Shown piece after piece: positions 4,601 through 62,379 of a stretch of 64,000 nt of DNA. Each line of letters starts with the position of its first letter. Positions within the stretch are counted from its first letter, which is position 1. The stretch is taken from assembly GCA_041665365.1 (NCBI GenBank), contig JBAYIY010000006.1, positions 19,602-83,601 on the forward strand. Reading direction: 5' to 3'. This stretch comes from Patescibacteria group bacterium (lineage in GTDB: Bacteria > Patescibacteriota > Patescibacteriia > UBA9570). Both the position numbers and the translations under genes were made by a program. The notes beneath the pieces were generated by a model. The model did not search any database, was not told the origin of the DNA, and saw only the letters and a program-made list of their open reading frames with translations.

Positions 4601-4605
4601 GTAGG

Positions 4606-9116: not shown

Positions 9117-9121
9117 ATGGT

Positions 9122-10399: not shown

Positions 10400-10402
10400 A
10401 TG

Positions 10403-18560: not shown

Positions 18561-18792
18561 CTTCCCTAGGTTCGCCGTTGAGGTAAAAGGTGGGAAGTAC
18601 GCTCTCCCCCTGGTCACGCGCACTTGACCGCGCGAAAGTGACCACCCCAACGGCGGCCTTTGGGGAAGAACAAGACAACGAGGAGAACAAGTGTGTGTGC
18701 TATATCCAGCGGGACGTAGCACACCGAATGTTCTCCTCCCTTCAGCAATCTGTATCAATTTATTGGTACAGATTGATTAGGGAAAAAATATA

Positions 18793-19468: not shown

Positions 19469-19514
19469 TTAAAAACAGTAGAGACATGCCATGGCATGTC
19501 TCTACTGTTTTTAA
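19469..19514. repeat. Family-A palindrome, 46 bp perfect (TTAAAAACAGTAGAGACATGCC|ATGGCATGTCTCTACTGTTTTTAA)
   Basis: Read directly. At the right edge of the GC-rich island. Confidence 0.9.
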
Positions 19515-20782: not shown

Positions 20783-20811
20783 GTTACAGACATGCCATGG
20801 CATGTCTTTAC
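20783..20811. repeat. Family-A palindrome, one-mismatch copy (GTTACAGACATGCCATGGCATGTCTTTAC)
   Basis: Between the aminotransferase stop and the gdh start; likely terminator hairpin. Confidence 0.8.
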
Positions 20812-39284: not shown

Positions 39285-39505
39285 CCTGCGGATAAGTTGT
39301 GCAGTGAGTGTGTGTGAAAAGTGTAATAAATTAAGCGGTAAAATTCATCCACTGGACATGCACAACTCTACACACAGTCTATTCCATCAACCAAGCAACA
39401 TATAATTCAACTATGTTAACACTAACTACCATTATCCACTTATTAACACCCCTTATTATTGTTATTATCTATTTATTTATATAATTTAATTAAGATACAG
39501 ATGTT
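39285..39505. promoter_or_regulatory. Candidate oriC (DnaA-box-like motifs plus AT-rich unwinding element) between dnaA and dnaN
   Basis: TTATCCACT, TCATCCACT and TTATCCGCA (as tgcggataa) box-like 9-mers, and the AT-rich stretch tattattgttattatctatttatttatataatttaatt. Confidence 0.5.
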
Positions 39506-45723: not shown

Positions 45724-46168
45724 TTAAAAAACCGGCCAAATCTTTTTTGCCCACCAACACAGGATAAATTAGTATTTTTCGATCAACTAAACTAGCAATT
45801 GTATCGATATGGCGATTACGTAAATGGAGGTGCAATTTAACATACGGCCGAACACTGATTCCATTAGTGGCCGGGATAACACGAATATCATACAAGCCCG
45901 GGATTTGTTTACGCAGTTTTGGCGTAATGGTGGTACGAATGGTTTCGCGAACTTTTTGAAAATTATGTTTTGTCAGTTCTAATTTAGGAAACAATTTTTT
46001 GAATTGAGTATAAACAGTATATAAACCCAATTTTTTTGCAACAGAAATATCTATGGCCGTGGTGCGAGCGCCAGTATCAATTTTGGCTTTACGGCGAATA
46101 AATTTTTTGGTACCAGGTAAAAAAATTTTTACTTCTTCGGCTAGACCAATAATAGTTTTTTTTGGCAT
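45689..46168 (-). CDS. RimK-associated retropepsin-like (putative ATP-dependent zinc protease, DUF785-like) protein
   Basis: 159 aa; IDTGARTTAI (D-T-G-A) and C-terminal VGKKDLAGFLIDP. Paralogous to the C-terminal domain of the next gene. Confidence 0.55.
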   Translation of the reverse strand: MPKKTIIGLAEEVKIFLPGTKKFIRRKAKIDTGARTTAIDISVAKKLGLYTVYTQFKKLFPKLELTKHNFQKVRETIRTTITPKLRKQIPGLYDIRVIPATNGISVRPYVKLHLHLRNRHIDTIASLVDRKILIYPVLVGKKDLAGFLIDPTKSDYEEA

Positions 46169-46172
46169 AAAA

Positions 46173-47552: not shown

Positions 47553-49117
47553 TAGGGTTGTTGTTTACCAATAAAAAGTTTGCGGAAGCGGAAGTATTCG
47601 ATGACGCGTAAACCGGAGAAGCGACCCAACACGATATTAATCACTAAAGTTAATAGAATCAATTCCGGATAACCCATTAACAAAGTCGAGAACTCATCCC
47701 AAGTGATAATCAAATAACTAATGATGGCCAGAGCTAAGGTTTCGGCCGTTAGAAAAATAGCTTGGCGATTACCTTGTTCAATTTGCACTTCAACAAACTT
47801 TTCTGTTAGCGTCATCATCACCAAGATCGGGAAAATAGAAATAGCTAAAATGTCAGTCTCACCATACAGGGCAGATAATATTAAGGCACCGAACAAAGTT
47901 ACACTGACAATGGTTAGAACAATGGCCATACGGGGTAAATACAAAATGCGTAACCGCCGCGCAGCGATCCGCGCTAGCGTAGCGGCCCCCAAGAGCAGCA
48001 AAAATGCCAAAACACCATATCTTAATCCGGTGATTGTAAAAGATAGCGTCATAACGGTGGGCACATATATACCAAAAGCCTTCACTCCCACCACTTGCCG
48101 ACCAAAGGAAATCAATGTCGCTACCACTGGTAAAGCCAGTAATAAAAATATTGTGTCCGAACCGACACCATTGTTGATCAAATAATTTACACCGTAGGAA
48201 ATAAAGTTAAACGGTGTAATCTGCTCCAAAGCGCGTTGGCTATGACGGCCGATCAATTGATAATCAATATTTTCTTGTTGTAGCCCTCCAACCAACTGGT
48301 CAACGGTCGGGTTAGCCAGAATAGATTCTAAAGCCGGCGGGGTAGTTAACATTATGTACTGTGGTACCAGCGCATTGTAAGTCGTTTGGGCGATACGGCC
48401 CAAAGCGCCACTACTAGGACGATCACTAATTTGGATGATGGCTTTTTGGGCAAAACTAATCATGCCTGACGTATCAGCTGAGCCACTACTGTTTAATATT
48501 CGACCCAACTCGGCGAGAGAATCTAATCCAATATTCTGCGCCGTCCAGACAATTACCACCTTGGCTTGAGAAATATCAGTTTCAGAAGATACTAACTGTT
48601 CAGCAATATTACGGGTTAGAACGTAATCTAAGTTTGAATCATTGCGCGGCCGAACTATTACTAACAAAGTACCATTACGTTGGGCATATTGGCGGTAGTA
48701 TCTAGCCTGATCACGACTGACGCTATCATCGGTAATAAGTAAAACGACATCTTTGGCGACAGAAACAAGTAAATCATCTCGTACCGTTTGATCGCCAGAG
48801 GTAATAGTTAAGTTGGCTTTATATGTACCGGATTGAGCATAAATATGAGACGCATCGATACCTTGAAAGCTTTGGCCATCACCAAAATCCCATTTATAGG
48901 TTAACGTGCTATCACTCGGGCCGCTGGAAGCGGATGCATCAAATAATACGTTTCGACCCACGGCCACGTTTTTATCCGGGCCAGCATTGGCAATTAATGG
49001 TGCTGGCGTAATTATTTCCTCTACTACACTGTCTGTTTGTGCTGACGTGAGTATCGGTACATACAAAAGTGCCGATAAAATAATGTATCTAGACATGTTT
49101 TTAGGCCAATGAAACAT
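47552..49117 (-). CDS. Secreted PKD-domain plus 7TM membrane protein (7TM/inactive-transglutaminase-like family associated with RimK operons)
   Basis: Signal peptide, PKD-like region (TYKWDFGDGQSF...GTYKANLTI), a roughly 170 aa extracytoplasmic domain, then seven predicted TM helices. Stop/start junction with the ATP-grasp gene. Confidence 0.45.
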   Translation of the reverse strand: MFHWPKNMSRYIILSALLYVPILTSAQTDSVVEEIITPAPLIANAGPDKNVAVGRNVLFDASASSGPSDSTLTYKWDFGDGQSFQGIDASHIYAQSGTYKANLTITSGDQTVRDDLLVSVAKDVVLLITDDSVSRDQARYYRQYAQRNGTLLVIVRPRNDSNLDYVLTRNIAEQLVSSETDISQAKVVIVWTAQNIGLDSLAELGRILNSSGSADTSGMISFAQKAIIQISDRPSSGALGRIAQTTYNALVPQYIMLTTPPALESILANPTVDQLVGGLQQENIDYQLIGRHSQRALEQITPFNFISYGVNYLINNGVGSDTIFLLLALPVVATLISFGRQVVGVKAFGIYVPTVMTLSFTITGLRYGVLAFLLLLGAATLARIAARRLRILYLPRMAIVLTIVSVTLFGALILSALYGETDILAISIFPILVMMTLTEKFVEVQIEQGNRQAIFLTAETLALAIISYLIITWDEFSTLLMGYPELILLTLVINIVLGRFSGLRVIEYFRFRKLFIGKQQP

Positions 49118-50141: not shown

Positions 50142-51137
50142 ATGCTCGATAGCCAAAACATGTTGTCATCAATTGATATGTTAGCCCAGCAAGTTAGTCA
50201 TGCCTGGAAGGATACAGCCAACTTACAATTATCGATTCCAACTAAATCGATTCAACAAGTAGTCTTGTTTGGTATGGGTGGTTCTGCTTTAGGTATGGAT
50301 GTAGTGCAACATTTATATACTGAACAGACTAAAGTACCTTTACTGATAGTTAATGACTATAAAGTACCTGGTTATATTAATGAACACACTTTAGCGATCT
50401 TTTCCAGCTATTCCGGCACAACCGAAGAAACGCTCATGGCCGCGAAAATTGTCCAACAACGCACCAAACATGTCGCCGTCATCACGACCGGTGGATCACT
50501 GGCGCAATTACCTGGGTATATTATCAACCCAACCTATAATCCCTGTGGGCAACCACGGATTGCCGTTGGTTATGCCGTCACTGGTTTGTTACGGATTTTA
50601 CAGCGTGCTGGAATTATTCAGATAACTGATCAGGACATAGACAATGCCATCCATTTTATTGATGGTAATCGGGAGCTATTAAATGATGCGGCCAAGGAAA
50701 CAGCGGAACGGTGTAAAAATAAATTATTACTTTTCATTGGGAGCGAACACTTACTGGGCAATGTTCATATTGTGACCAACCAAACCAATGAAAATGGCAA
50801 ACACTTTGCTGGATATTTTGCCATCCCAGAACTCAACCATCATTTATTAGAGGGTTTAAGCAATCCGGCTGCCACTAAACAATTACATCTGGTCTTGATT
50901 GAATCAAATTTATATCACGAGCGCGTACAAAAACGCTATGACATTACCAAGCAGGTCTTAGATAAACAGGGGATTAGTCATGAACAATTTATTACTACGG
51001 CCACCACCCCATTACAACAATCATTTGAAGTCTTACAATGGGGCAGTTATTTGAGCTTTTACATCGCGGCTGCGCACAACATTGATCCGTCGCCGATTCC
51101 ATGGGTAGATTATTTTAAACATGCGTTGGCTAAATAA
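50142..51137 (+). CDS. Bifunctional phosphoglucose/phosphomannose isomerase (SIS domain, archaeal type)
   Basis: 331 aa; two SIS-domain pattern (VLFGMGGSALG, SYSGTTEE). Confidence 0.6.
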   Translation: MLDSQNMLSSIDMLAQQVSHAWKDTANLQLSIPTKSIQQVVLFGMGGSALGMDVVQHLYTEQTKVPLLIVNDYKVPGYINEHTLAIFSSYSGTTEETLMAAKIVQQRTKHVAVITTGGSLAQLPGYIINPTYNPCGQPRIAVGYAVTGLLRILQRAGIIQITDQDIDNAIHFIDGNRELLNDAAKETAERCKNKLLLFIGSEHLLGNVHIVTNQTNENGKHFAGYFAIPELNHHLLEGLSNPAATKQLHLVLIESNLYHERVQKRYDITKQVLDKQGISHEQFITTATTPLQQSFEVLQWGSYLSFYIAAAHNIDPSPIPWVDYFKHALAK

Positions 51138-52650
51138 GCTTGGTCCAAGCGCAGTCTTAGGGTTAACCATTGGGCTGTTTATTTGGTATCAATCGATTCA
51201 GACTTTTCCTGACCCCGATGCGTATTATCATGCCAGACTTGCGGCTATCATGCTGCAATCTGGTCTGCCCACCACATTTCCCTGGCTGCCATTAACAACC
51301 TTATATCAACATTTTGCTGATCACCATTTACTGTATCATGTAGCCTTAATGCCCGCTGTGGCATTATTTGGTCCAATTATTGGGGTTAAATTAATGCAAG
51401 TTATATTTGCTAGTTTAGTGATAATTATTTGTTATTTTATTTTGCGCCGGTGGCATATTCCATACCAAGCCCCAGCTCTTTTGCTGTTACTTAGTAGTTA
51501 TCCCTTTCTAGTAAGGATTAATTTAGTAAAAGCTTCCGCCGTGGCGATTTGTTTATTTTTATTGATTCTATATTTTTTATTGCAAAAACGGTATGGGTTA
51601 GTAGGCATTCTAACACTAATTTACACGCTAACTCACGGTGGATTTATTTTAGCAGTGGTTTTAGCGACTGCCGTTTGGTCGGCCGACAGTATCGCCCAAA
51701 TATTTAAAGCAAAACAATATAAACCTATCTTACCAACGGGAATATTTGTTGTGTGGGCAGCCATCATTATTGGAATATTAATCAACCCATCGTTTCCAAA
51801 TAATCTGGCTTTTTTGTGGGCGCAAGTATTTCAGATTGGGGTGGTTAATTATCAGTCGGTGATCTCAGTTGGGGCGGAATGGTACCCATTTCCACTAACC
51901 GAATTAGTCGAAGCGATTAGTGTATTATTAATCGGTGTAGTGGCCACCATTCCAGTGTGGCTGAGGCAGTGGCGTAAAGTGTTAAGTGATGAAAAAGCGG
52001 TGTCTTTATTATTACTCACCCCAGTTTTTTTTATTTTAACTTTACGCTCACGCCGGTTTGTTGAATATTTTATCCCATTACTGTGGTTGTTGATTTGTTT
52101 ATTAGTGCTACCGGCTTGGCAGGCGGGCATTATTCAACCGGTTTGGCAAAGCATCACGCGCCGGCTTGGGCACTGGGCGAAGCTATTAAATATGTACATC
52201 GTAGTCACAACTATTGGTACAATCGTGATTGGTGTAATCGGGATCGGACGCAGTTTTTATCAAGCAAAACCAATTGATCGGTTTGCCCAAGCCGGTGCTT
52301 ATTTACAAAGTGTAGCCGAACCAAATGAAATAGTATTTCATGGGCGGTGGGATGACTTTCCGGCGCTATTTTATTATGCACCGAAAGCGTCATACATGGC
52401 TGGGCTTGATCCAACTTTCCTGTATTTAGCTGATAAAAATTTATATCAACACTGGAATGATATTGCCACGGGCAGGGCTAAACAACAAACGGCTAGTAAC
52501 ATCCGTGATTATTTTCAAGTGCGCTATGTTGTGGTAGATGAATCTGATTCACATACGCAATTAATGTTAGCTTATTTGTTGCGTGATAAAACCGCCAAGC
52601 TAGTTTTTCATCAGAAACCAATGGCAATTTTTAAATTAGTTGAATTATGA
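51121..52650 (+). CDS. Polytopic membrane protein, GT-C-fold glycosyltransferase-like (paralog 1)
   Basis: About 12 TM helices with a C-terminal soluble domain. First extracytoplasmic loop FPDPDAYYH (DxD-like). Shares blocks (RINLVKA, THGGFIL, FPNNL, AEWYPF, DDFPAL, GLDPTFLYLA) with the next gene. Confidence 0.4.
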   Translation: MRWLNKLGPSAVLGLTIGLFIWYQSIQTFPDPDAYYHARLAAIMLQSGLPTTFPWLPLTTLYQHFADHHLLYHVALMPAVALFGPIIGVKLMQVIFASLVIIICYFILRRWHIPYQAPALLLLLSSYPFLVRINLVKASAVAICLFLLILYFLLQKRYGLVGILTLIYTLTHGGFILAVVLATAVWSADSIAQIFKAKQYKPILPTGIFVVWAAIIIGILINPSFPNNLAFLWAQVFQIGVVNYQSVISVGAEWYPFPLTELVEAISVLLIGVVATIPVWLRQWRKVLSDEKAVSLLLLTPVFFILTLRSRRFVEYFIPLLWLLICLLVLPAWQAGIIQPVWQSITRRLGHWAKLLNMYIVVTTIGTIVIGVIGIGRSFYQAKPIDRFAQAGAYLQSVAEPNEIVFHGRWDDFPALFYYAPKASYMAGLDPTFLYLADKNLYQHWNDIATGRAKQQTASNIRDYFQVRYVVVDESDSHTQLMLAYLLRDKTAKLVFHQKPMAIFKLVEL

Positions 52651-54077
52651 AATGGTATGTGTGGCTGAGCATTGTGCTGCTGGCACTTGGTTTGTGCAGC
52701 TTACAAGGCACAGTTGTTTTTCCTGATCCAGATGCGTTTTACCATGTTGGCGTGGCCCAACATTTATGGGAGTTTGGCTTTGCTAAAACATTTTCCGGAT
52801 TGCAACCCACTACTTTAGGGCAACACTTTGTCGATCAGCATTTCTTATTACATTTTACCCTAGCACCATTTGTGTGGATGATGAGCCCTGGAGTTGGCAC
52901 CAAAGTATATATGGTAGTTGTAGTATTAGTCTGTTTAAGTGTCATGTCTTACATGCTATATTGGATCAAAGCACAGACTTGGTGGGTTGGAGTTATGCTT
53001 TTGGTAGCAACTAACGCCTGGTTATTTCGTATAAATTTAGTAAAGGCCACGCCGTTGGCTTTGATTTTGTTATTTTTATCACTGCTAGCTTTACAAACAA
53101 AAAAATATAAATGGTTACTGCTAATAGGTGGTCTCTATGTCTGGACACACGGTGGGTTTATTTTATTGCCCATTCTAGTTGGAGTTTGGAGCCTGTTAGC
53201 CAAACAATGGAAACCGGTCGCGTATGTATTATGTGGAATCAGTGTGGCTATTTTAGTCCACCCAGCCTTTCCAAATAATCTATTATTTTATTGGGAACAA
53301 CTTGTTCAAATCGGCGCAGTTAATTATCAAACTGTGATTGGGGTAGGAGGAGAGTGGTATCCCTATGAACCCGGTTCATTAGTATTTGGTCATACTATAA
53401 TTTTTTCCATTCTAATAATTAGTCTTGTCCTGCATGTCTTACAAAGACGTCCGTTTACTGTGGCGCAAATATGTTTTTCTATTTACACCGTAATATTTTT
53501 CATTCTCACATTAAAATCCAAAAGATACGTGGAATATTTTTCACCCATGTTAGCCTGCACAGCGGCATTGTATGTGCCAACGGTGATAAAATCAAAAGTA
53601 GAGACACACAATAAAGTAGAGACACGCCATGGCATGTCTCTACTTTTGATTCCCACGGCAATTATGATTGTTGTCCTGGTACCGGTTGTAATTCAAGAAA
53701 TTATTACCGCAAAAACTGATTTGCAATCTGGCCAAGCGTTAACCTATTTACATGGAGCCGGAGAATTTTTAGATACTTTACCACCAGGGCAAGTCGTTGC
53801 CCCCAGTGATTGGGATGATTTTCCAGCTCTGTGGCGAGCCGCACCACACCAACAATTTTTAATTGGATTAGATCCGACTTTTCTATATCTGGCTAATCCT
53901 ACTCGTTATGAAGCTTGGCGCGCCCTCACCTTAGGTGAAGACAATGATGTTGATACAGTAGGGGCAGATTATTATGTGGTAGCCAAAGACCATAAATCTA
54001 TGCATAAACATTTGGTAAAAATTGATGCCGTGACGGTTTATGAAGACGATGAGGCTTGGGTGTTAACAACCCCATAA
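52647..54077 (+). CDS. Polytopic membrane protein, GT-C-fold glycosyltransferase-like (paralog 2), with in-frame palindrome-encoded insert
   Basis: Same conserved blocks as paralog 1. Residues KSKVETHNKVETRHGMSLLLIP are encoded by a family-A palindrome at 53594..53648. Confidence 0.4.
   Translation: MKWYVWLSIVLLALGLCSLQGTVVFPDPDAFYHVGVAQHLWEFGFAKTFSGLQPTTLGQHFVDQHFLLHFTLAPFVWMMSPGVGTKVYMVVVVLVCLSVMSYMLYWIKAQTWWVGVMLLVATNAWLFRINLVKATPLALILLFLSLLALQTKKYKWLLLIGGLYVWTHGGFILLPILVGVWSLLAKQWKPVAYVLCGISVAILVHPAFPNNLLFYWEQLVQIGAVNYQTVIGVGGEWYPYEPGSLVFGHTIIFSILIISLVLHVLQRRPFTVAQICFSIYTVIFFILTLKSKRYVEYFSPMLACTAALYVPTVIKSKVETHNKVETRHGMSLLLIPTAIMIVVLVPVVIQEIITAKTDLQSGQALTYLHGAGEFLDTLPPGQVVAPSDWDDFPALWRAAPHQQFLIGLDPTFLYLANPTRYEAWRALTLGEDNDVDTVGADYYVVAKDHKSMHKHLVKIDAVTVYEDDEAWVLTTP
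53594..53648. repeat. Family-A palindrome (one mismatch) with partial tandem duplication, inserted in-frame in a CDS
   Basis: aaagtagagacaca + aaagtagagacacgccatggcatgtctctacttt. Confidence 0.85.
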
Positions 54078-54080
54078 AAA

Positions 54081-54111
54081 ATAACACCCGGTTTCATACT
54101 GGGTGTTATTT
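54081..54111 (+). terminator. Hairpin (aataacaccc-loop-gggtgttatt) after the membrane-protein pair
   Basis: 10 bp perfect stem directly after the stop codon, followed by T-rich sequence. Confidence 0.5.
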
Positions 54112-54113
54112 TG

Positions 54114-54141
54114 TAGAGACATGCCATGGCATGTCTCTACT
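54114..54141. repeat. Family-A palindrome, 28 bp perfect core (GTAGAGACATGCCATGGCATGTCTCTAC)
   Basis: Read directly; between convergent genes. Confidence 0.9.
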
Positions 54142-54148
54142 GTTTTTA

Positions 54149-54559
54149 TCAACCAGTACTGACTGAACTGGCACCGGTGAAGTTTAACAAATTGTTAATC
54201 ACATACACAGATACGCCCCAACCAGCCAAAATGATAACTAAACCAATCAAAGCAGCGTAGAGAGTTTTCTTCGCTCCTTCGACTTTTTCTTCATTACCAC
54301 CGGCTGTCATCCAACGGAAACCACCGACTAAAATTAAAACAACTGCGATTAAGGCAAGAATACCCAAAACCCAGTTAATAACACTAATCACCAAAGCTTC
54401 TGGGCTAGCATTGCCTAGAATCATGGCATCAGTGATGCCGGTATTGTCTAACTGATCGACTGTTAACGAGCTAGCGTTGGTGGCCGCAGCAGTTAACATA
54501 CCCACGGCACCTATTCCAAGATAGGCGAAACGGGTGACTGTACTTTTGAACTTATTCAT
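54149..54559 (-). CDS. Secreted pilin-like protein with C-terminal two-TM hairpin module (family member 1)
   Basis: Signal peptide, then INWVLGILALIAVVLILVGGFRWMTAGGNEEKVEGAKKTLYAALIGLVIILAGWGV. Confidence 0.55.
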   Translation of the reverse strand: MNKFKSTVTRFAYLGIGAVGMLTAAATNASSLTVDQLDNTGITDAMILGNASPEALVISVINWVLGILALIAVVLILVGGFRWMTAGGNEEKVEGAKKTLYAALIGLVIILAGWGVSVYVINNLLNFTGASSVSTG

Positions 54560-54667
54560 AGTGTTCTTTAAGTATTAAATTAATTATTAATGGAACTATA
54601 CATAGATTAAACGATTTTGTAAAGACTAGGTTGACTTCTCGGGAATTGTAATGGTAAAGTACACACC

Positions 54668-54982
54668 ATGAAACGCTTGGCTTTTAGTTTGGAGTTCGAT
54701 TCAGATAAAACGCTGCAAACCTATACGAAGCTTGGAAATACCGATCCGGTATCCATTGTGTTCACAATTGTAAATACAGCCTTAGTATTTTTAGGTGTAG
54801 TAACATTAGTACTTATTATAGTGGCTGGCTTCTTATGGCTAACGGCCGGTGGTAATGAAGAACAAATTAAAAAATCCAAAGACATTATGAAAGGTGCTGT
54901 GATTGGTTTGGTGATAGTGTTAGGTTCCTACGGTATTGCTCAATATCTCTTTACCGCCATTCAATTAGCCACTACTAGTTAA
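54668..54982 (+). CDS. Pilin-like two-TM hairpin module protein (member 2, no obvious leader)
   Basis: VNTALVFLGVVTLVLIIVAGFLWLTAGGNEEQIKKSKDIMKGAVIGLVIVLGSYGIAQYLF. Confidence 0.5.
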   Translation: MKRLAFSLEFDSDKTLQTYTKLGNTDPVSIVFTIVNTALVFLGVVTLVLIIVAGFLWLTAGGNEEQIKKSKDIMKGAVIGLVIVLGSYGIAQYLFTAIQLATTS

Positions 54983-54985
54983 TTT

Positions 54986-55387
54986 ATGCACATACGTTTA
55001 CCTCTATTATTATCGTCACTGACCATCATGGTTGGTGTAACATTAAGCTCTATATCAGTAGATGCCGCGAGTATTTCAATCGACCCATTAGGAGGTACTG
55101 AGTTTTACGGCAGTCTAAGTGATACTGGTTTAGGTACAGCCGATCCGGTCACGGTAGCGTCACAGATTGTGAATGTGTTCTTACGTTTGTTAGGAGCCAT
55201 TACCGTTATGTTAATGATTTACGGTGGTTGGACATGGATTTGGGCGCGTGGTAATCAAGAAGAGGTTACCAAAGCCAAAGAAATTATTACCGGTGCTGTA
55301 ATTGGCCTAGTGATTGTACTGGCATCATTTGGTATTATGCAATATCTGTTTTATTATTTGACCAAAATTACCAATGCGGTTAAGTAG
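54986..55387 (+). CDS. Secreted pilin-like two-TM hairpin module protein (member 3)
   Basis: Signal peptide, then IVNVFLRLLGAITVMLMIYGGWTWIWARGNQEEVTKAKEIITGAVIGLVIVLASFGIMQYLF. Confidence 0.55.
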   Translation: MHIRLPLLLSSLTIMVGVTLSSISVDAASISIDPLGGTEFYGSLSDTGLGTADPVTVASQIVNVFLRLLGAITVMLMIYGGWTWIWARGNQEEVTKAKEIITGAVIGLVIVLASFGIMQYLFYYLTKITNAVK

Positions 55388-56228
55388 ATGGATTTTTTTG
55401 GTTTGTTTGCTAGTAGCGCCAGTTTGGGTTAGAGCCGCCGATGCACCCTCTGACACTGAAATTGAAATGAGCGCCGGTTCTACTTCTGCCACAGCTGGTG
55501 TACAATTTGATCCGTCAAAAAATATTATTGGTAATCCGGATAATGATCAAAAATTATCAGTTGGATCAGTTTTGAGATTAACTTATTTATCCGGTGCATC
55601 AGATCCGTTATCTATTACCATCAATGTAATAAATGTGGCTTTAAGTTTTTTAGGATTAACATCATTAATAATGATGTTATATGCAGGATTAAAGTGGTTT
55701 TTTGCTCGGGAAAATGAGGAAGAAGCCACCAAGGCCAAAGAGATTATTATTGGTGCCGTGATCGGCTTGGTCATTACACTGGGGTCGTACGGTATTGTAC
55801 AACTATTATTTAGTCAATTTACAATTGCTACAGCATTTATCAAATCGATCATTCCGATAGCTTATGCTGATAGCGGAGTGACAATAGAACCAGCGACATT
55901 GCCATTTGATCCAAGTAAGGCCTCTGGTGGCTATGTGGCCGTAACTAGGGCAAGCTTAGTGCCAATTACAGGCATTAATTTAGGAAAAACTGATCCTTTA
56001 TCTGTAACCATTAATGTGGTTAATATTTTACTATCATTATTAGCCACTGCCTTTTTGGGTTTGATGTTGTATACTGGTGGTGTGTGGGTTTGGGCACGAG
56101 GTAACGAAGAAATAATCTTGCGGGCGCGGGATACATTGTTTCGGGCTGTGCTCGGGTTAGTTATTGTGCTCGGAGCATACGGCATTGCTGAATTAGTGTT
56201 TACTTTAATTAGTCAGCAAACAACCTAA
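55374..56228 (+). CDS. Secreted protein with two tandem pilin-like hairpin modules (member 4)
   Basis: Module a: NVALSFLGLTSLIMMLYAGLKWFFARENEEEATKAKEIIIGAVIGLVITLGSYGIVQLLF. Module b: VNILLSLLATAFLGLMLYTGGVWVWARGNEEIILRARDTLFRAVLGLVIVLGAYGIAELVF. Confidence 0.55.
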   Translation: MRLSRWIFLVCLLVAPVWVRAADAPSDTEIEMSAGSTSATAGVQFDPSKNIIGNPDNDQKLSVGSVLRLTYLSGASDPLSITINVINVALSFLGLTSLIMMLYAGLKWFFARENEEEATKAKEIIIGAVIGLVITLGSYGIVQLLFSQFTIATAFIKSIIPIAYADSGVTIEPATLPFDPSKASGGYVAVTRASLVPITGINLGKTDPLSVTINVVNILLSLLATAFLGLMLYTGGVWVWARGNEEIILRARDTLFRAVLGLVIVLGAYGIAELVFTLISQQTT

Positions 56229-56234
56229 TTTATT

Positions 56235-56639
56235 ATGATGCGAAGAATAATATTAAGTGGTTTTATCCTATTAGTTAGTGCCCAACAGACACTGGCAGTT
56301 GGTTTTCTGCCAACCAATGATGATACTGGGTTGCTAAACACAACAGCTTCAAACTCATTAGCCTTAGGGAAAGCTCAACCAACCACAGTGGCGTTAAATC
56401 TAATAAATGCCGGACTGTCATTGTTGGCGGCGGTGTGCGTGGGGTTATTAATTTATGCTGGGTTCTTATGGGTGTGGGCCAGGGGAAATACAGAAGAAGT
56501 AAAAAAAGCCAAAGATATTCTCACTGGTACAGTACTTGGTTTAATTGTAATATTGGCGTCATTGGGAATAACTCGATTTGTGTTTACGACAGTAGGAAAC
56601 ATTACCGGCGCAACCATCGTTAATAACGCATCTGAATAA
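56235..56639 (+). CDS. Secreted pilin-like two-TM hairpin module protein (member 5)
   Basis: LINAGLSLLAAVCVGLLIYAGFLWVWARGNTEEVKKAKDILTGTVLGLIVILASLGITRFVF. Confidence 0.55.
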   Translation: MMRRIILSGFILLVSAQQTLAVGFLPTNDDTGLLNTTASNSLALGKAQPTTVALNLINAGLSLLAAVCVGLLIYAGFLWVWARGNTEEVKKAKDILTGTVLGLIVILASLGITRFVFTTVGNITGATIVNNASE

Positions 56640-56648
56640 GATACATAT

Positions 56649-57026
56649 ATGATAAAAAAAATATCCTCAATCTTAATAACTAGTTCATTAATCGCATTGC
56701 CGTTGTTATCACTGGCTGAATATACTCCACAAGCCGTGGTGTTCGATCCAAACTCAAATGTGGAAAGAAACACTGGTTTAGGAAACGCTACACCAGGTGG
56801 TATTGCCGCCGGCGTAATTAATTGGGTATTGGGTATACTAGCCTTACTAGCGATTTGTTTAGTAATTTACGGTGGAATTTTATGGATGACATCGGCCGGC
56901 AATGAGGAACAAGTGAAAAAAGCCAAAGATATACTTTTTGGTGCGTTAATTGGCGTGGTAATTATTTTAGCATCCTATGGTGCTACCCAATATGTCTTTA
57001 CGAACCTGGTCGATATTACTACTTAA
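56649..57026 (+). CDS. Secreted pilin-like two-TM hairpin module protein (member 6)
   Basis: VINWVLGILALLAICLVIYGGILWMTSAGNEEQVKKAKDILFGALIGVVIILASYGATQYVF. Confidence 0.55.
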   Translation: MIKKISSILITSSLIALPLLSLAEYTPQAVVFDPNSNVERNTGLGNATPGGIAAGVINWVLGILALLAICLVIYGGILWMTSAGNEEQVKKAKDILFGALIGVVIILASYGATQYVFTNLVDITT

Positions 57027-57390
57027 CTTTTTATTAGTTGGTGTTTTACCAATTATTCCGGCGTTGGCTTATGAACAGCGGCCGTTGGATTATTATCAAA
57101 ATGATATTCAGGTCAATACCGGCTTAGGTGGCTATGATAATGTTGGTAGTGAAGGGCCAGTGGAGACAGCCTCGCGGGCAATCAATATATTACTTGGTTT
57201 ACTAGGTACATTAACTTTGTGTTTAGTTATTTACGCCGGCTTTTTGTGGATGACAGCACAAGGTAATGAGGAACAAGCCAAAAAAGCCAAAGATATTTTA
57301 TCTGGTGCTGTGATTGGAATAGTCATCATTCTCGCCTCCTACGGAATAACCAATTACGTTTTTAGGAGTTTAGTGAATATCACAAACTAA
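56977..57390 (+). CDS. Secreted pilin-like two-TM hairpin module protein (member 7)
   Basis: AINILLGLLGTLTLCLVIYAGFLWMTAQGNEEQAKKAKDILSGAVIGIVIILASYGITNYVF. The start probably lies at an internal Met (MSLRTW...), given the overlap with member 6. Confidence 0.5.
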   Translation: MVLPNMSLRTWSILLLNFLLVGVLPIIPALAYEQRPLDYYQNDIQVNTGLGGYDNVGSEGPVETASRAINILLGLLGTLTLCLVIYAGFLWMTAQGNEEQAKKAKDILSGAVIGIVIILASYGITNYVFRSLVNITN

Positions 57391-57408
57391 CACTACAAAT
57401 AATAAGCC

Positions 57409-57437
57409 AAATATCTGTAGTAGTACTACAGATATTT
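57409..57437 (+). terminator. Perfect palindromic hairpin (AAATATCTGTAGTA|GTACTACAGATATTT) after the pilin-like gene run
   Basis: Read directly, 17 nt after the stop codon. Confidence 0.4.
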
Positions 57438-57471
57438 TGATAAAATTCTGTAGTTTCACTAAATTAATCTT

Positions 57472-57568
57472 CCCGGAATACACCTCCCCAACCCTCCTAT
57501 TCTAGGAGGGAGCAAGAAATAATCTAATTCTTTATCTTACCCTTCCTACAATAGGAAGGGTGCTCGAG
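57472..57568 (-). mobile_element. About 100 bp MITE-like repeat element, copy 2 (inverted relative to copy 1 at 9019)
   Basis: Reverse complement aligns along nearly its whole length with 9019..9116, including both internal hairpins and the aagataaagaa spacer. Confidence 0.7.
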
Positions 57569-57678
57569 TCCGCGAGGGCGGGATGGTGTTCTGAGATTCA
57601 AGACTTCAAGTTGACAGTACTGATTTTTATTGATAACCTTTATCAATAAAGAGCGCCACCTAAGATTGGGGCGCTTTT

Positions 57679-58050
57679 ATGTATATACGATCGTCGAATC
57701 GAAATATTCTTCAATATGATCAGAAGCTTAGATGGATTGCAAAATCATTGAGAAAAAATGCTACAGAAGCTGAACGGTTACTCTGGCAAGAATTACGATC
57801 CAGAAAACTTGGTTACAAGTTTAGACGTCAACATGCACTCCATGGTTACATTGTTGATTTTTATTGTTACGCAAAAATGTTAGTAATTGAAGTTGATGGA
57901 TCTATTCATGATGCTAAAATAGATCATGATCGCTCAAAAGATGACATTTTAAAATTAAACGGTTTCAAAGTGATTCGGTTCACAAATGAAGCAGTTATAT
58001 ACCATCTCACAGAAGTCACAAATACCATACAGCATTATCTAGCTCAATAA
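57679..58050 (+). CDS. DUF559 (Vsr-like / restriction-endonuclease-fold) domain protein
   Basis: LWQELRSRKLGYKFRRQHALHGYIVDFYCYAKMLVIEVDGSIHD...KDDILKLNGFKVIRFTNEAV, the typical DUF559 pattern. Bracketed by copies of the ccttcctacaataggaagg hairpin. Confidence 0.7.
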   Translation: MYIRSSNRNILQYDQKLRWIAKSLRKNATEAERLLWQELRSRKLGYKFRRQHALHGYIVDFYCYAKMLVIEVDGSIHDAKIDHDRSKDDILKLNGFKVIRFTNEAVIYHLTEVTNTIQHYLAQ

Positions 58051-58098
58051 ATGCTCCTGCTCCCTTCCTACAATAGGAAGGGCTGGGGATGGTGTACT
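58050..58098. repeat. Partial copy of the MITE-like element (ctcccttcctacaataggaagggctggggatggtgtactc)
   Basis: Shares the hairpin and the ggctgggga(t)ggtgt tail with copy 1. Confidence 0.65.
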
Positions 58099-58725
58099 CT
58101 AAGCCCCCGTCGCTGTTTGGAATATACTAAACGTGAAACTGAGTAAGGCGTAGCTAGCTAGCACTACGGCTAATCCAATTACTGCCCAAATTAGTATTTT
58201 TTTGCCTTTAGTGACCATTTCTTCATTTCCATGGGAAAAGATTAAATTCATTCCGCCCCACACAAACATCAACAAAGCTAGTGAACCAACAATACCCAAT
58301 AATATTTGAATAAGAATCGCAATTATTACGGTGATAGAGGCTTGTGATGTTGAACCAAACGGTGGTTTCAAGAAAGTAGGTTTTGTAACGGAAGTGGGTG
58401 TAGTTGGCGTTGTAGTAGTGGTAGTAGTCGTTGGACTAATTGTACAAGAACTACACGTGGTATCGCATGCAGAAGTATCATTAAGTGGATCACACTTATC
58501 AGTATAACATGCAGTTAGATCGAATGTTGGATCGAAACTGGGATCGGTCGGGTCAAGATCTAAAGCGTCGCAGGTAGCTTCACAGGACGCTACTTCTGCC
58601 GCTGCTTTATCTTCACATTTATTCAGACAATCTTTGCATTCGTCAGCCTGTACGGGTGCTTTTGGTACGCCAAGCAACACAACTACTAGGCTTAATAAAA
58701 GTGGAAACAAGAATTTGTATGGCAT
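58099..58725 (-). CDS. Secreted Cys-rich / poly-Thr protein with C-terminal pilin-like hairpin module (member 8, subfamily 2)
   Basis: Signal peptide, Cys-rich region (ECKDCLNKCEDK...CDTTCSSC), TTTTTTTPTTPTS linker, then QILLGIVGSLALLMFVWGGMNLIFSHGNEEMVTKGKKILIWAVIGLAVVLASYALLSF. Confidence 0.5.
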   Translation of the reverse strand: MPYKFLFPLLLSLVVVLLGVPKAPVQADECKDCLNKCEDKAAAEVASCEATCDALDLDPTDPSFDPTFDLTACYTDKCDPLNDTSACDTTCSSCTISPTTTTTTTTPTTPTSVTKPTFLKPPFGSTSQASITVIIAILIQILLGIVGSLALLMFVWGGMNLIFSHGNEEMVTKGKKILIWAVIGLAVVLASYALLSFTFSIFQTATGA

Positions 58726-58735
58726 GGTCTTACAA

Positions 58736-59086
58736 TTAAGCGCCGGAGGCGGTTTTTAATATTCCAAAAACGAAGCTGGTTAGGGCATAGGCACTTAAAA
58801 CAATCACTAAACCAATGGTTGCCCAGATGAGAGTACTTTTCCCTTTTTTGAGATTTTCTTCATTACCACCGGAAAACACCATGTGTAATCCACCCCAAAT
58901 AAACATTAACAAAGCCCCAGAACCAACTATGCCGAGTAATACTTGAATAATAATGGCTATAACGGTTGTAATGGTGACACTGGCAGCATCACCAACTGGC
59001 GAGAAACCGGTGTCGGTAGCCAAGGTGATCAGTGGAACCAAGAAACCAATAGATGTAATTAATATGGGTGGTAGTTTGGATTTCAT
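58736..59086 (-). CDS. Secreted pilin-like two-TM hairpin module protein (member 9, subfamily 2)
   Basis: IQVLLGIVGSGALLMFIWGGLHMVFSGGNEENLKKGKSTLIWATIGLVIVLSAYALTSFVF. Confidence 0.55.
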   Translation of the reverse strand: MKSKLPPILITSIGFLVPLITLATDTGFSPVGDAASVTITTVIAIIIQVLLGIVGSGALLMFIWGGLHMVFSGGNEENLKKGKSTLIWATIGLVIVLSAYALTSFVFGILKTASGA

Positions 59087-59889
59087 TTTAGTTTGGCACA
59101 GATTGTATCAGGTTTCGCACACGTTACCGTAGTATTAAAATCGTACTTAGTATTACTTTTTACTGTAGTTGCATCAACACAGTCATATCCTGTATGACCT
59201 TCAAGGACAAATTGTTGACAACCATCTATACAAGCACATTGATTCTTCGTATTTTTAGTGGAATCTTTAATCAGACTCATATCGGTTGTATCTTCACCGC
59301 TACATTTTACATCGGCTGTTGTATTAGCACGCCAACAATAACAAGTTGGATCTTTTATATTTTTACATGTGCCTATGCTGCACTTATCACTAATATTATG
59401 AGTCATACACTGTGCCGGTGCTGGTGGATTGCAGGCGCCAAGATCCCACCAGTTGTTACTGAATACTTTGGTGGTGGAAGTCCCGCCGGATAGGGCGGCA
59501 GCGCGGACAATAATATTAACTGCCAACCAGGCAATAAACACAATGGCTAAACCGGTCACCGTACCAATTAATATTTTTTTGCCGGTTTCAACGCGGGTTT
59601 CAACACCGGCTGAAAAAATCAACATGAGTCCACCGGCCACAAACATCAATAAGGCCAAACCTCCCAAGATACTGGCAATCAAGTTAGCGGCATTTACGAA
59701 GACACGAGTGATATCACAAATATCGCAACCACCGGCATCTTGGCATTCTTTTGGAACAATATTTATCCAACTGCTAGGGCTACTGGTGGTAGCGGTAGTC
59801 GGCACTTGAGCTAGAGCTGTCTGAGATAATCCAAAAACAAAAAAAACTGAGCCAGTAACAAGTAAACAGAATCTGGAAAACTTATTCAT
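59083..59889 (-). CDS. Secreted protein with N-terminal pilin-like hairpin module and C-terminal Cys-rich domain (member 10, subfamily 2)
   Basis: ANLIASILGGLALLMFVAGGLMLIFSAGVETRVETGKKILIGTVTGLAIVFIAWLAV, followed by a roughly 130 aa domain with many Cys (CMTHNISDKCSIGTCKNIKDPTCYCW...). Confidence 0.5.
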   Translation of the reverse strand: MNKFSRFCLLVTGSVFFVFGLSQTALAQVPTTATTSSPSSWINIVPKECQDAGGCDICDITRVFVNAANLIASILGGLALLMFVAGGLMLIFSAGVETRVETGKKILIGTVTGLAIVFIAWLAVNIIVRAAALSGGTSTTKVFSNNWWDLGACNPPAPAQCMTHNISDKCSIGTCKNIKDPTCYCWRANTTADVKCSGEDTTDMSLIKDSTKNTKNQCACIDGCQQFVLEGHTGYDCVDATTVKSNTKYDFNTTVTCAKPDTICAKLK

Positions 59890-61252
59890 AGGTTAATTCT
59901 ACCTTACTGGCGGTATTTTCAACAGCGGTGAGAATATCTAATCGGCCAGCGTTAACAATATCAATCATATCGGCAAAAGCCTGCTCGGTTTCGGCTGGTT
60001 TTTTGCCCGCATACCAGCTTTGGGCAGTTAAAGTTTCGTTAGCAAAGACAGCTAGATCAAAATTGTCTTTTTGGCTCTCCAATAAACTGCGTAGAGCGGT
60101 TGGTTTTGGATTTTTATCAAGCATGGCTTTTACATTCGTCTCAGAAGTAGTTAGAGCCTGAATAAAAGCCCAAGATTCATTGGGGTGAGCTGAGTTTACC
60201 GACACAGACTCTAACCAGTAGTTGGCGTAATTAATAGCGGTCAGCGGGTCAGCCGTTACTTGTGGAACCGGAGCGATGCCGATATCAAGTTGATCACCAC
60301 TATTTTTCATGGAGTCTTTATTGTAGTAATAACCAAAGTAATAGACTAATTTACCGGCTAAAAATTGTTCTAAAGCATCGGGCTGATCTTTATTCCAGCT
60401 GTACCAATCAACGGCTGGGTTAGCAAAACTGGTATAAAAATCTACGGCTTGAACACCGGGGGTGACTTCATCATTGCGGTTCTCACCTTGAGCAAATGTC
60501 ACATTAGTTCCCGAACTCATAGTGGCGCCATTTTGCATCATCAAAAGCGAAACAATATCAAACATTCTTGGAACGTTTTCGCTGGTACCCAAAGCTGCGC
60601 CAGCTTGAATAATATTGTCATTGACGTCAGTTAGGGTAAGTTGGGGTACCTGTTTAACGAAATCATCCCAAGTAGTGGCTGGTTGTGGAATATTCGCCGC
60701 ATCTAGTAGTGTTTTGTTGTAGTACAATACCAATGTATCCATACTTAACGGTAAACCATACACTTGACTAGTACCAGTGGCACTAGATTTAACCACATCA
60801 TCGTATACTACTTGTGGGAATAATACGTTTACATCTTGAGCAGTAGTTCCTTTCAATGCTTCACTCGCTACGACGGTATTTTTTTGGCCAAGTGATTGTG
60901 TCACAGTGACGGACGTTAATTTTAATGAGCTAGGCATTGGCGAAATCAGGTTTTGAAATGAGCCAATATGACTATTGGGTACAGAAAACATATCTGGTCC
61001 TTTACCCTGCGCCCACGCCTCGATAAGCTTACCTTCATATTCATCTTGCCGGAAGGTTTTTATTTCAACAGAGATATAAGGATATTTAACAGCAAAAGCA
61101 TCGATGACTGGTTGAATATCTTCACTCGATGTGTAAACTGTCCAGTACTCTAAAGTAAACGGAGCCGGTTGTGTACCAGAACCGCGGCAAACGGCGCCAC
61201 TTGAGATTAACCAAACGCACATTAAACTTAAACCAATCAGCGAGCGTTTCAT
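59882..61252 (-). CDS. ABC transporter extracellular solute-binding protein (family 1, sugar-type), lipoprotein
   Basis: Lipobox-like N-terminus (LISSGAVC), 456 aa, periplasmic binding protein pattern. Confidence 0.65.
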   Translation of the reverse strand: MKRSLIGLSLMCVWLISSGAVCRGSGTQPAPFTLEYWTVYTSSEDIQPVIDAFAVKYPYISVEIKTFRQDEYEGKLIEAWAQGKGPDMFSVPNSHIGSFQNLISPMPSSLKLTSVTVTQSLGQKNTVVASEALKGTTAQDVNVLFPQVVYDDVVKSSATGTSQVYGLPLSMDTLVLYYNKTLLDAANIPQPATTWDDFVKQVPQLTLTDVNDNIIQAGAALGTSENVPRMFDIVSLLMMQNGATMSSGTNVTFAQGENRNDEVTPGVQAVDFYTSFANPAVDWYSWNKDQPDALEQFLAGKLVYYFGYYYNKDSMKNSGDQLDIGIAPVPQVTADPLTAINYANYWLESVSVNSAHPNESWAFIQALTTSETNVKAMLDKNPKPTALRSLLESQKDNFDLAVFANETLTAQSWYAGKKPAETEQAFADMIDIVNAGRLDILTAVENTASKVELTYE

Positions 61253-61254
61253 GG

Positions 61255-62379
61255 TTAATACTGTAGCAAATTTAGCAATTTTTTAAAAGCCGGATGTTGT
61301 TTAGCGGCGTCTAAATCTGCTAAACGTTTAATTGGCCAAAACCGTTGTAACCGGTTAACCAACACATATTGCGATGGCAGATCAACATCACAGGCAAAAC
61401 GTTCGAGTTGAATCACGTTACCCTCAGTGATAGTTTTTTCAGCCAGCACCCAAGGCAGGTCGTTATCAAATTTTAGTAAATCAGATAATGTAAACCAAAA
61501 AGTATTTGTGTTTAGCCAAGGAAGGGCGGCATAATCAAAATCTGGCGGAAATTTCATTTGTTCAACAATGGTCATTTTACCATCTACTAAGCACGGCACA
61601 CCACCTTGATCAGCAGCTGATTTGTCTACTATCTCAACGGTTCGCCCGAGCTGACTTTTAATATGTTGTCCTAGTAGAACAACATCTAATGTAGCAGCAA
61701 TATTATCAATGTTAGAAAAAAATAAATATTTTACATTTGGAATTTGTTCATGTGCTAAATAATCACGCAACAGGTAAACGAAATCACCGTGGCCACAAGG
61801 CGCCCAGGATAATTTTCCTTGTTGGTCAACAAACACATCAATGTCTTCACGCACAGCGGTGTTGGTAAAGCGCGGGATATGTTCTTGCTGCACAACAAAA
61901 TGAATGCGCGTTGGATCAAGCGCAGAATATTTTTTATACAACATGTCTAAATGTTCACGGGTTGGTTGATCAGTTACAAAACTGTTCATGATTACAACCG
62001 GTGGATGACTTGCTAGGTGATGAGTTTTAGTTACTCTTAATAAATCAAGTATCTTTAACTCTAAATAACTAATGTCATCAATTACTGGGCTAACACCCTT
62101 AGCTAGATTTGAACCATATCTGGTAGCGGCGCCGCCGTTTAACCAGAATAATAATAACTCATCATGTTTTAGAGCGGTTATACCAATGTTACTAGAACCA
62201 GCATCATATTGGACAATATTTTTTGGCTCCGGAACCAGTAATTGAGTAGGCGATAACACAAAACTCGTCTGATCTAGTTCACCGGACTGTAGTTTAATAT
62301 GTAAGGCTTTAATGTGAGCCGGATCAACCCCTTTAGTCAGTAATTGTTGTTTAATTTCAGCCTGATCTATATGCAACAT
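61255..62379 (-). CDS. UDPGP-family UTP--sugar-1-phosphate uridylyltransferase-like protein
   Basis: WLNGGAATRYG resembles the LNGGLGT.MG nucleotide-binding loop of eukaryotic-type UDP-sugar pyrophosphorylases. Confidence 0.55.
   Translation of the reverse strand: MLHIDQAEIKQQLLTKGVDPAHIKALHIKLQSGELDQTSFVLSPTQLLVPEPKNIVQYDAGSSNIGITALKHDELLLFWLNGGAATRYGSNLAKGVSPVIDDISYLELKILDLLRVTKTHHLASHPPVVIMNSFVTDQPTREHLDMLYKKYSALDPTRIHFVVQQEHIPRFTNTAVREDIDVFVDQQGKLSWAPCGHGDFVYLLRDYLAHEQIPNVKYLFFSNIDNIAATLDVVLLGQHIKSQLGRTVEIVDKSAADQGGVPCLVDGKMTIVEQMKFPPDFDYAALPWLNTNTFWFTLSDLLKFDNDLPWVLAEKTITEGNVIQLERFACDVDLPSQYVLVNRLQRFWPIKRLADLDAAKQHPAFKKLLNLLQY

Follow-up and report, generated by a model that had tools for sequence, protein, structure and literature searches.

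A 64,000-nucleotide stretch of the genome of a Patescibacteria group bacterium (contig JBAYIY010000006.1; hereafter the window) carries two adjacent genes for polytopic membrane proteins, which we call MP1 and MP2, followed by an array of pilin-like genes, a solute-binding protein (SBP) and a UDP-sugar pyrophosphorylase. An earlier note on this DNA had read 51121-62379 as a possible surface-glycosylation locus, in which the two membrane proteins, taken for GT-C glycosyltransferases, modify the pilins. All the gene positions it claimed are confirmed on the open reading frame (ORF) map of the window. Its locus left out the isomerase gene at 50142-51137, which belongs to the same unit. The features are as follows.

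50142-51137, plus strand: bifunctional phosphoglucose/phosphomannose isomerase-like (PGI/PMI-like) gene (PF10432, E = 2.6e-26)
51121-52650, plus strand: MP1, 509 amino acids (aa), membrane protein with a predicted GT-C fold (AlphaFold2 model and Foldseek)
52647-54077, plus strand: MP2, 476 aa, paralogue of MP1 (34% identity to MP1, AlphaFold2 model and Foldseek)
54113-54140, strand not assigned: perfect palindrome of 28 bp with a T-run after it, separating MP2 from pilin 1
54149-54559, minus strand: VirB2-like pilin 1, 136 aa (PF18895, E = 9.4e-11)
54668-57390, plus strand: six tandem VirB2-like pilin genes (PF18895, E = 2e-10 to 3e-7, and a pilin hidden Markov model (HMM) derived from the window)
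57679-58050, plus strand: DUF559 endonuclease-like (very-short-patch-repair-like) gene within the pilin array (PF04480, E = 3e-33)
58099-59889, minus strand: three VirB2-like pilin genes downstream of the SBP gene, in the same operon (PF18895)
59882-61252, minus strand: sugar-type solute-binding lipoprotein, SBP (partial GanS match, sugar SBPs in the PDB, orthologues)
61255-62379, minus strand: eukaryote-type UDP-glucose pyrophosphorylase of the UDPGP family (PF01704, E = 1.4e-37)

Fold, topology and conservation of MP1 and MP2

As the earlier note had described, MP1 and MP2 are paralogues with shared sequence blocks (identity measured over 467 residues, E = 4e-67) and a DxD-like first loop, which reads FPDPDAYYH in MP1 and FPDPDAFYH in MP2 and lies directly after the first transmembrane helix. 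The note had also placed both proteins among the GT-C glycosyltransferases, and on this point sequence and structure gave different answers. Searches of Pfam and NCBIfam returned nothing for either protein, except for a weak NCBIfam match of MP2 to a family named for 'cell surface glycopolymer formation' (E = 0.003, well under the cut-off). None of 55 family members matched the Pfam GT-C models STT3, PMT, PMT_2 or YfhO at E ≤ 1; the ArnT-type Pfam models and Wzy_C found no match in MP1, MP2 or the family members, and a profile of the family found none among PDB sequences at E ≤ 10. Structural comparison, by contrast, puts both proteins in GT-C. AlphaFold2 modelled MP1 with a predicted local distance difference test score (pLDDT) of 95.4 and a predicted template-modelling score (pTM) of 0.94, and MP2 with values of 93.1 and 0.92. 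Searched against the PDB with Foldseek at E ≤ 1e-3, the models gave 28 matches for MP1 and 27 for MP2, all of them GT-C enzymes, with probability 1.00 and template-modelling (TM) scores of up to 0.69.

The best matches of MP1 were the oligosaccharyltransferases (OSTs) AglB (E = 7.5e-9), human and yeast STT3 (TM-scores up to 0.69) and PglB (E = 2.6e-7), after which came DPY19, ArnT, AftD, ALG9, AftA/B, Emb and PMT. For MP2 the top matches were yeast and then human STT3 (E = 5e-9, TM-scores 0.64-0.69). For both paralogues ArnT ranked as a secondary structural match (E = 2e-6 to 5e-6), and PMT structures matched weakly (E = 0.007-0.1). Because sequence profiles detect nothing, the GT-C assignment leans on predicted structure; as the significant Foldseek matches are exclusively to GT-C enzymes, with no other family among them, the support for it is good, and OST catalytic subunits are the closest of the solved structures. 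Judged by these models, MP1 and MP2 are very probably GT-C glycosyltransferases.

Helix positions and the distribution of Lys/Arg clusters on the models point to about 11 transmembrane helices and an N-terminus on the inner side. The first helix (TM1) comprises residues 2-25 and is followed by D31 and D33. As the Lys/Arg clusters fall on the N-terminus and on every other loop, we place loop 1 outside. The C-terminal alpha/beta domain, which spans some 125 residues (382-509 in MP1), is likewise predicted to lie outside the membrane. The DxD loop is thus external, as the earlier proposal had envisaged.

The family of MP1 and MP2 is large and unannotated, and Patescibacteria account for all its named members. 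A word-indexed search returned 65 relatives, all unnamed or hypothetical proteins and every named source a member of the Patescibacteria; a 509-aa protein identical to MP1 is already on record, annotated as hypothetical, from a metagenome-assembled genome labelled "Patescibacteria group bacterium". When the profile was searched exhaustively, 5,238 representatives (at 50% identity) scored E ≤ 1e-3, and 2,304 of them E ≤ 1e-30. Across an alignment of 55 sequences D33, Y36, H37, H73, R132, P223, E253, R312, E315 and D430 are invariant, and near-invariant positions include D31 (at least 90%), D67, H69, W410, D411, F413 and P414. MP2 retains every one of these residues. On the models, the ten invariant residues are predicted to sit in external loops or in the external domain.

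A 28-bp perfect palindrome, GTAGAGACATGCCATGGCATGTCTCTAC, occurs four times in the window (19478-19505, 20784-20811, 53616-53643 and 54113-54140) against zero copies expected. The third copy lies in frame within the MP2 coding sequence, at about aa 322-335 in a cytoplasmic loop, and the confidence of the MP2 model dips at residues 311-340, around this insert. It looks like a repetitive extragenic palindromic (REP) or miniature inverted-repeat transposable element (MITE)-like sequence that was absorbed into the loop. The fourth copy is likely a bidirectional terminator at the boundary between MP2 and the pilins.

Gene context in the window and in related genomes

The PGI/PMI gene, which reaches E = 2.8e-63 against NCBIfam PGI/PMI models yet stays under their curated cut-offs, overlaps the start of MP1 by 17 nt and heads a PGI>MP1>MP2 operon, within which the MP1 and MP2 reading frames overlap by 4 nt. 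A second operon, UDPGP>SBP>pilin, is recognised from a 2-nt gap between UDPGP, its first gene, and the SBP gene, together with an 8-nt overlap of the SBP stop with the start of the next pilin gene. UDPGP scores 129.9 bits against PF01704 (cut-off 22), and its best PDB relatives are UDP-glucose pyrophosphorylases (E = 1e-20), with UDP-GlcNAc enzymes at E = 1e-5 or weaker. By its sequence relatives the SBP is a divergent sugar-type binding protein: it has no Pfam match of its own, but gives a partial NCBIfam GanS match (E = 9e-10) and finds maltose and other sugar SBPs in the PDB (about E = 1e-7), while orthologues from L001 and other related loci carry PF01547 and share a lipobox-like Cys. Neither the window nor the annotated loci L001, L004 and L005 of relatives have a partner permease or ATPase gene within about 10 kb of the SBP gene. 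The DUF559 gene is missing from the otherwise collinear locus L001 and is probably an unrelated insertion into the array.

To place these genes in a wider context, we scanned species-representative genomes with a 16-sequence alignment of the MP family, which gave 80 loci, added contig look-ups and annotated the loci with HMMs built here; Kerfeld-, Falkow-, Buchanan-, Magasanik-, Kuenen- and Uhrbacteria are among the lineages represented. Downstream counts refer to the 50 species-level loci with at least 8 kb beyond the MP gene. The order that recurs is RuvC< YebC< PGI> MP> (GT2> GT87> DUF2079<) pilin<...pilin< SBP< GalU<. Upstream, 50 of 66 related loci have PGI ahead of MP; in about 35 of 62 no more than 10 bp separate the two genes. 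Downstream, a GT2 gene follows MP in 35/50 loci, typically as the immediate neighbour; DUF2079 is found in 20/50 and GT87 in 4/50, and at least one further glycosylation gene (GT2, GT87, DUF2079 or a second MP) is near MP in 45/50. Pilins occur within 10 kb downstream of MP in 31/50 loci, as against 1/54 upstream. Pilins and an SBP are found together in 24/50, and 12 of those 24 also have GalU or UDPGP. Spacing is tight within this block: at most 13 bp lie between the SBP and pilin genes in 20 of 31 loci, and at most 5 bp between GalU or UDPGP and the SBP gene in 10 of 16. Although L014 is rearranged, its pilin-SBP-UDPGP block is still less than 5 kb away from PGI-MP-MP. The association of MP, pilin array, SBP and UDP-sugar pyrophosphorylase that the earlier note saw in a single stretch therefore recurs in related and in fairly distant genomes. 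Neither outcome that the note had named as counting against its reading, membrane proteins that match a non-glycosyltransferase family or an arrangement found in no related genome, was observed.

Two genes vary with lineage. Tandem MP paralogues are almost confined to a Kerfeldbacteria-like clade, in which an adjacent GT2 was not seen. The slot that heads the SBP-pilin operon is held by a eukaryote-type UDPGP in this clade and elsewhere by a GalU-type NTP_transferase, which scores above the TIGR01099 cut-off (for example L005:17073-17954 and L004:20388-21269); because the two occupy the same slot, we take this as non-orthologous replacement with the same class of product. The GT2 of the relatives has Pyrococcus Dol-P-Man synthase as its best solved relative (E = 1.9e-22), followed by ArnC and GtrB, and gives weak NCBIfam matches to PgfS, AglJ and PpgS; on these similarities it is a polyprenyl-phosphate monosaccharide synthase.

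The window also contains dnaA (at 37884) and dnaN, together spanning 37884-40609, which puts the locus 10-25 kb from the probable replication origin. Type IV secretion system (T4SS) genes of the Candidate Phyla Radiation (CPR) are reported to lie preferentially near dnaA (bioRxiv 10.1101/2025.01.22.634366), a proximity echoed by the position of the glycosylation and pilin block, no more than about 25 kb from the probable origin. No virB4 was seen in the window. An Rfam scan of the window found tRNAs, with no rRNA and no riboswitch, and a promoter scan returned fewer sites than shuffled controls.

Several side observations follow. An NTP_transferase-family nucleotidyltransferase at 15299-16135 is a further sugar-metabolism gene in the window, besides a tandem pair of GT2 genes at 2898-4410. 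At 17200-18700 the guanine-plus-cytosine (GC) content rises to 62-64%, compared with about 41% for the genome; this island, which holds a class I/II aminotransferase ORF (17106-18560) and adjoins a fragment of an IS200-like Y1 transposase (16057-16683), probably reflects either horizontal gene acquisition or a chimeric assembly, and is not rRNA, as Rfam finds tRNAs only. Just upstream of RuvC/YebC, 45689-49117 encodes an ATPgrasp_ST ligase with an aspartyl-protease-like tail, a PKD+7TM_transglut membrane protein and a RimB-like Zn_protease, a three-gene set conserved in the closest relatives (L001 and L008-L013). In L062, whose contig is shared with L084, the SBP gene and five pilin genes are present as a perfect mirror-image inverted duplication (2275-6066 and 7379-11170), either a genuine inverted repeat, perhaps, or an artefact of assembly. 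Finally, L009, L012, L015, L016, L020 and others are Patescibacteria by gene content and best matches but bear the public title 'uncultured Gammaproteobacteria bacterium', probably a labelling artefact of submission.

Proposed donor, acceptors and pathway

From these neighbours we infer a pathway in which hexose phosphates would pass through PGI/PMI and be activated, by UDPGP in the window and GalU in the relatives, to a UDP-hexose that is most likely UDP-glucose. The GT2 enzyme that resembles Dol-P-Man synthase (DPM1), encoded beside the GT-C gene in most relatives, would load the sugar onto polyprenyl phosphate. The lipid-linked sugar would then be flipped across the membrane, and MP1 and MP2 would transfer it to an acceptor at the outer face; candidate acceptors are the exported VirB2-like pilins and/or the SBP lipoprotein of the adjoining UDPGP>SBP>pilin operon. 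The reading that we favour, at about even odds, is a role of MP1 and MP2 in polyprenyl-phosphate-hexose-dependent glycosylation outside the membrane, with products of the adjoining operon as the most plausible acceptors. A polyprenyl-phosphate monosaccharide is the probable donor, by a modest measure; whether the acceptor is a protein is finely balanced, and the pilins or the SBP in particular are a tentative choice.

This pathway has parallels in other bacteria. In streptococci, surface proteins are glycosylated by GtrB with PgtC2 and by PgfS with PgfM1, and the adhesins presumed to be substrates of the Pgf enzymes are encoded in the pgf cluster itself (PMC12041528). GtrB+PgtC2, PgfS+PgfM1/M2 and, for lipoteichoic acid, CsbB/GtlA+YfhO all combine a GT2 polyprenyl-phosphate-sugar synthase with an extracytoplasmic GT-C enzyme, as the relatives of our locus appear to do. 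The Pgf system shares two more features: its GT-C enzymes PgfM1 and PgfM2 are tandem paralogues, like MP1 and MP2, and the GT2 of the relatives gives weak matches of the PgfS/GtrB type. MP1 and MP2 may differ in acceptor or, as PgfM1 and PgfM2 do, act successively. The MPs differ from YfhO, PgtC2 and PgfM, however, in that none of the 55 members matches PF09586 and the fold is closer to STT3, and the streptococcal acceptors are Ser/Thr-rich disordered tails whereas the candidates here are VirB2-like pilins or an SBP. Actinobacterial O-mannosylation (Ppm1 with Pmt of GT39, and elongation by GT87) likewise uses a polyprenyl-phosphate-hexose donor, as proposed for the MPs, and GT87 is found in some of the relatives; lipoproteins and SBPs are the classic acceptors of that system. 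Unlike Pmt, the MPs have no PMT/PMT_2 HMM match and no MIR domain, and PMT is among their weaker structural matches.

As the pilins are candidate acceptors, we looked at the array itself. It comprises 10 genes and 11 domains on both strands (54149-59889), all matching PF18895 (T4SS_pilin) with E of about 1e-6 to 1e-12 and scores of 27.8-45.7 bits against a cut-off of 26.6, which makes them VirB2/TrbC-like pilins and not type IV pilins. The six-gene run consists of 54668-54982, 54986-55387, 55374-56228 (with two pilin domains), 56235-56639, 56649-57026 and 56977-57390; the three SBP-proximal genes match at E = 1.3e-11 (58099-58725), 6.8e-12 (58736-59086) and 2.7e-6 (59083-59889). In 206 aligned pilin domains, a conserved cytoplasmic loop, G-G-N-E-E-x-x-K-A-K, connects two hydrophobic helices. 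Two of the SBP-proximal genes encode enlarged fusions: that at 58099-58725 has a Cys-rich N-terminal domain and a run of eight Thr, that at 59083-59889 a Ser/Thr-rich N-terminus and a Cys-rich C-terminal domain of about 140 aa, and the equivalent gene of L004 (17776-19014) encodes 412 aa with a weak PG_binding_1 match. They may be adhesive or tip-like members of the array.

The earlier note had drawn on pilin O-glycosylation in other bacteria and on Ser/Thr-rich segments in several array members, and neither argument carries over well. PglL/PilO/TfpO (Wzy_C) and the GT-C arabinosyltransferase TfpW resemble our case in that the enzyme gene adjoins pilin genes and modification takes place outside the membrane, as it would for the MPs. 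Because these precedents for pilin glycosylation concern type IV pilins and other enzyme families, the analogy is loose: the array here is VirB2/TrbC-like and the MPs are not Wzy_C proteins. To our knowledge there is no precedent for glycosylation of VirB2/TrbC-like (PF18895) pilins. Clear Ser/Thr-rich tracts occur in just two pilins of the window, those encoded at 58099-58725 and 59083-59889. We considered such tracts as a conserved acceptor signal and rejected them, as they are found in 4/202 pilins and in 16/1,328 background ORFs. Two other features were seen: a conserved Thr (or Ser) lies about 7 residues past the second hydrophobic helix, in the external C-terminal tail, in 66% of 161 tails from the window and loci L004-L087, and N-x-S/T occurs 42 times in the C-terminal tails against 27.8 expected (z = 3.2), with no enrichment in the N-terminal ectodomains (z = 0.05). 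The tail residue and the sequon excess could mark a modification site or merely a structural feature. O-glycosylation of the pilins by MP1/MP2 is a plausible hypothesis.

Several observations weigh against the proposed pathway and its acceptors. Operon context is the only pointer to the acceptors, and RuvC/YebC adjoin the locus in 49/66 loci, about as often as pilins do, so synteny alone is not proof that the pilins are acceptors; the gene order could be frozen synteny near the origin. L002, L006 and L007 have MP family members without pilins nearby. The four tract-bearing pilins fall in 3 of 40 loci, two of the four being those of the window, and the 206-domain alignment contains no conserved N-x-S/T sequon. 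Neither a Dol-P-Man-synthase-like GT2 nor a flippase was identified in the window, where the tandem GT2 genes at 2898-4410 look generic and closer to chondroitin-synthase-type GT2 than to DPM1. The profile alignments to OSTs described below, moreover, reach hhalign probabilities of 8% or less.

The strongest alternative is that MP1 and MP2 glycosylate or elongate a surface glycopolymer other than protein, for example a lipoglycan, a cell-wall polysaccharide or a polymer resembling teichoic acid, and that the pilin/SBP operon is simply a conserved neighbour close to the origin. We hold this to be a real but lesser possibility. Relatives often encode two more GT-C families (GT87 and DUF2079) as well as GT2, as in multi-enzyme extracytoplasmic glycan assembly; the L007 member sits in a sugar-modification cluster that has no pilins; RuvC/YebC are equally syntenic; and the one NCBIfam family that MP2 weakly matches is named for glycopolymer formation. 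YfhO-type GT-C enzymes, according to work cited in PMC12041528, glycosylate teichoic acids. Set against this, the nearest structures of MP1 and MP2 are protein-modifying OSTs and not ArnT, Emb or Aft, and the WD motif aligns to the peptide-binding WWD of OSTs. A glycopolymer acceptor also leaves unexplained the tight coupling of the UDP-glucose pyrophosphorylase gene with those for the SBP and the pilins, and the locus has no conserved polymer-export or polymerase genes, a separate Wzy_C gene being found beside the SBP gene in just 3 related loci.

Relation to oligosaccharyltransferases

As OST subunits are the top structural match of both paralogues, we compared the family with PglB and STT3 residue by residue. 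The Campylobacter lari PglB sequence was recovered from a PDB alignment, and its homologues, only from Campylobacter and at least 54% identical, gave a shallow profile; the STT3 comparison was limited to loop 1, using human STT3A residues 43-106 (verified against the PDB) and exon-sized homologous fragments. With hhalign, the family and the PglB profile gave one collinear local alignment (P = 0.004, probability 8%), which weakly pairs E253 with the loop-5 Glu E319, R312 with R375, and W410-D411 with W464-D465. R312 and R375 fall within a shared RFxxYxxP, and a global alignment repeats the E253, R312 and W410-D411 pairings. D31-x-D33 pairs, again weakly (hhalign P = 0.16 and 0.06), with E47-x-D49 of STT3A, in keeping with the topology. 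In PglB and STT3A the loop-1 Asp (D56 and D49, respectively) is catalytic; R375 of PglB binds the donor phosphate and WWD binds peptide (PMC7226087). By these equivalences, the putative active site of the MPs would combine D31-x-D33 in the first external loop with E253 in a later one; R312, at the membrane boundary, would bind the lipid phosphate, and W410-D411 would contribute from the external C-terminal domain.

The MPs share with AglB, STT3 and PglB an N-in/C-out polytopic GT-C architecture, an external C-terminal domain and an acidic-x-Asp motif after TM1; in the weak alignments an external-loop Glu, a boundary Arg in RFxxYxxP and a WD motif fall opposite E319, R375 and WWD of PglB. They differ in that the STT3 HMM misses the family, in having about 11 transmembrane helices instead of 13, and in a C-terminal domain of about 125 aa, less than half that of PglB, against about 280 aa or more in OSTs. 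Within the WWD(YG) comparison, the first Trp is replaced in the MP family and YG is replaced by DF. There is no counterpart of the second D-x-D/E motif (D154/D156 of PglB): the external turn between TM3 and TM4 has no conserved acidic residue in 55 sequences, the invariant R132 and the conserved K137 stand in its place, and D67, H69 and H73 of loop 1 are the sole other conserved potential metal ligands. The position that aligns with Y468 of PglB, which reads the N-acetyl group, is a conserved Pro (P414), and no DK/MXXI motif was seen, the C-terminal domain being too short for that region. Since these defining features are absent, we describe the family as OST-like GT-C proteins and do not file it with the OSTs (PF02516). 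The genomic partner of the MPs also differs, being a polyprenyl-phosphate monosaccharide synthase and not a lipid-linked oligosaccharide (LLO) pathway.

A speculative and rather improbable extension of the proposed pathway would make the MPs miniaturised OST homologues of divergent sequence that attach single hexoses, donated by polyprenyl monophosphate through a GT2 of the DPM1/AglJ type, to VirB2-like pilins and/or the SBP. They would then form a new bacterial OST branch whose metal and donor site differs, R132/K137 and D67/H69/H73 replacing the second DXD. More doubtful still, and in our view unlikely, is that MP1 and MP2 are true OSTs, which like PglB, AglB and STT3 transfer a glycan en bloc from polyprenyl diphosphate to the Asn of N-x-S/T. 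The structural ranking, the suggested equivalents of D56, E319, R375 and WWD, and the mild sequon excess in pilin tails all fit such an activity. It is difficult to square, though, with the sequence and domain differences listed above, or with genomes in which phosphoglycosyltransferase, flippase and other LLO-assembly genes are not conserved nearby and the conserved neighbour makes a monosaccharide-phosphate lipid; sequons, furthermore, are conserved neither in the pilins nor in the SBP orthologues. That the proteins have a GT-C-like fold but no glycosyltransferase activity, serving for instance as scaffolds or transporters in pilin biogenesis, is very improbable, because although some such folds are non-catalytic and the GPI transamidase subunit PIG-U is among the weak Foldseek matches, invariant acidic, basic and aromatic residues occupy canonical GT-C active-site positions and the operon of the MP genes includes PGI and, in relatives, also a polyprenyl-phosphate-sugar synthase gene.

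Pilin arrays of the CPR have been documented with no link to glycosylation, and one VirB2-like array is reported to be essential for epibiotic growth in Southlakia (bioRxiv 10.1101/2025.01.22.634366). A 2024 study of Saccharibacteria pili terms their glycosylation "unexplored" (PMC11623550), and our literature search combining Patescibacteria or CPR with OST or GT-C found nothing relevant. The MP family, with at least 2,300 clusters (50% identity, E ≤ 1e-30), is invisible to Pfam and NCBIfam and shares a conserved block with VirB2-like pilin arrays, which are common in Patescibacteria. It adds a compact bacterial relative to the structural lineage of the OSTs, which bears on OST evolution and on glyco-engineering. 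If the association with the pilins is real, it would give a concrete, testable way into the question of how ultra-small episymbionts modify the surface structures that contact their hosts, and if transfer to the pilins proves true, no earlier case of glycosylated T4SS-type pilins would be known.

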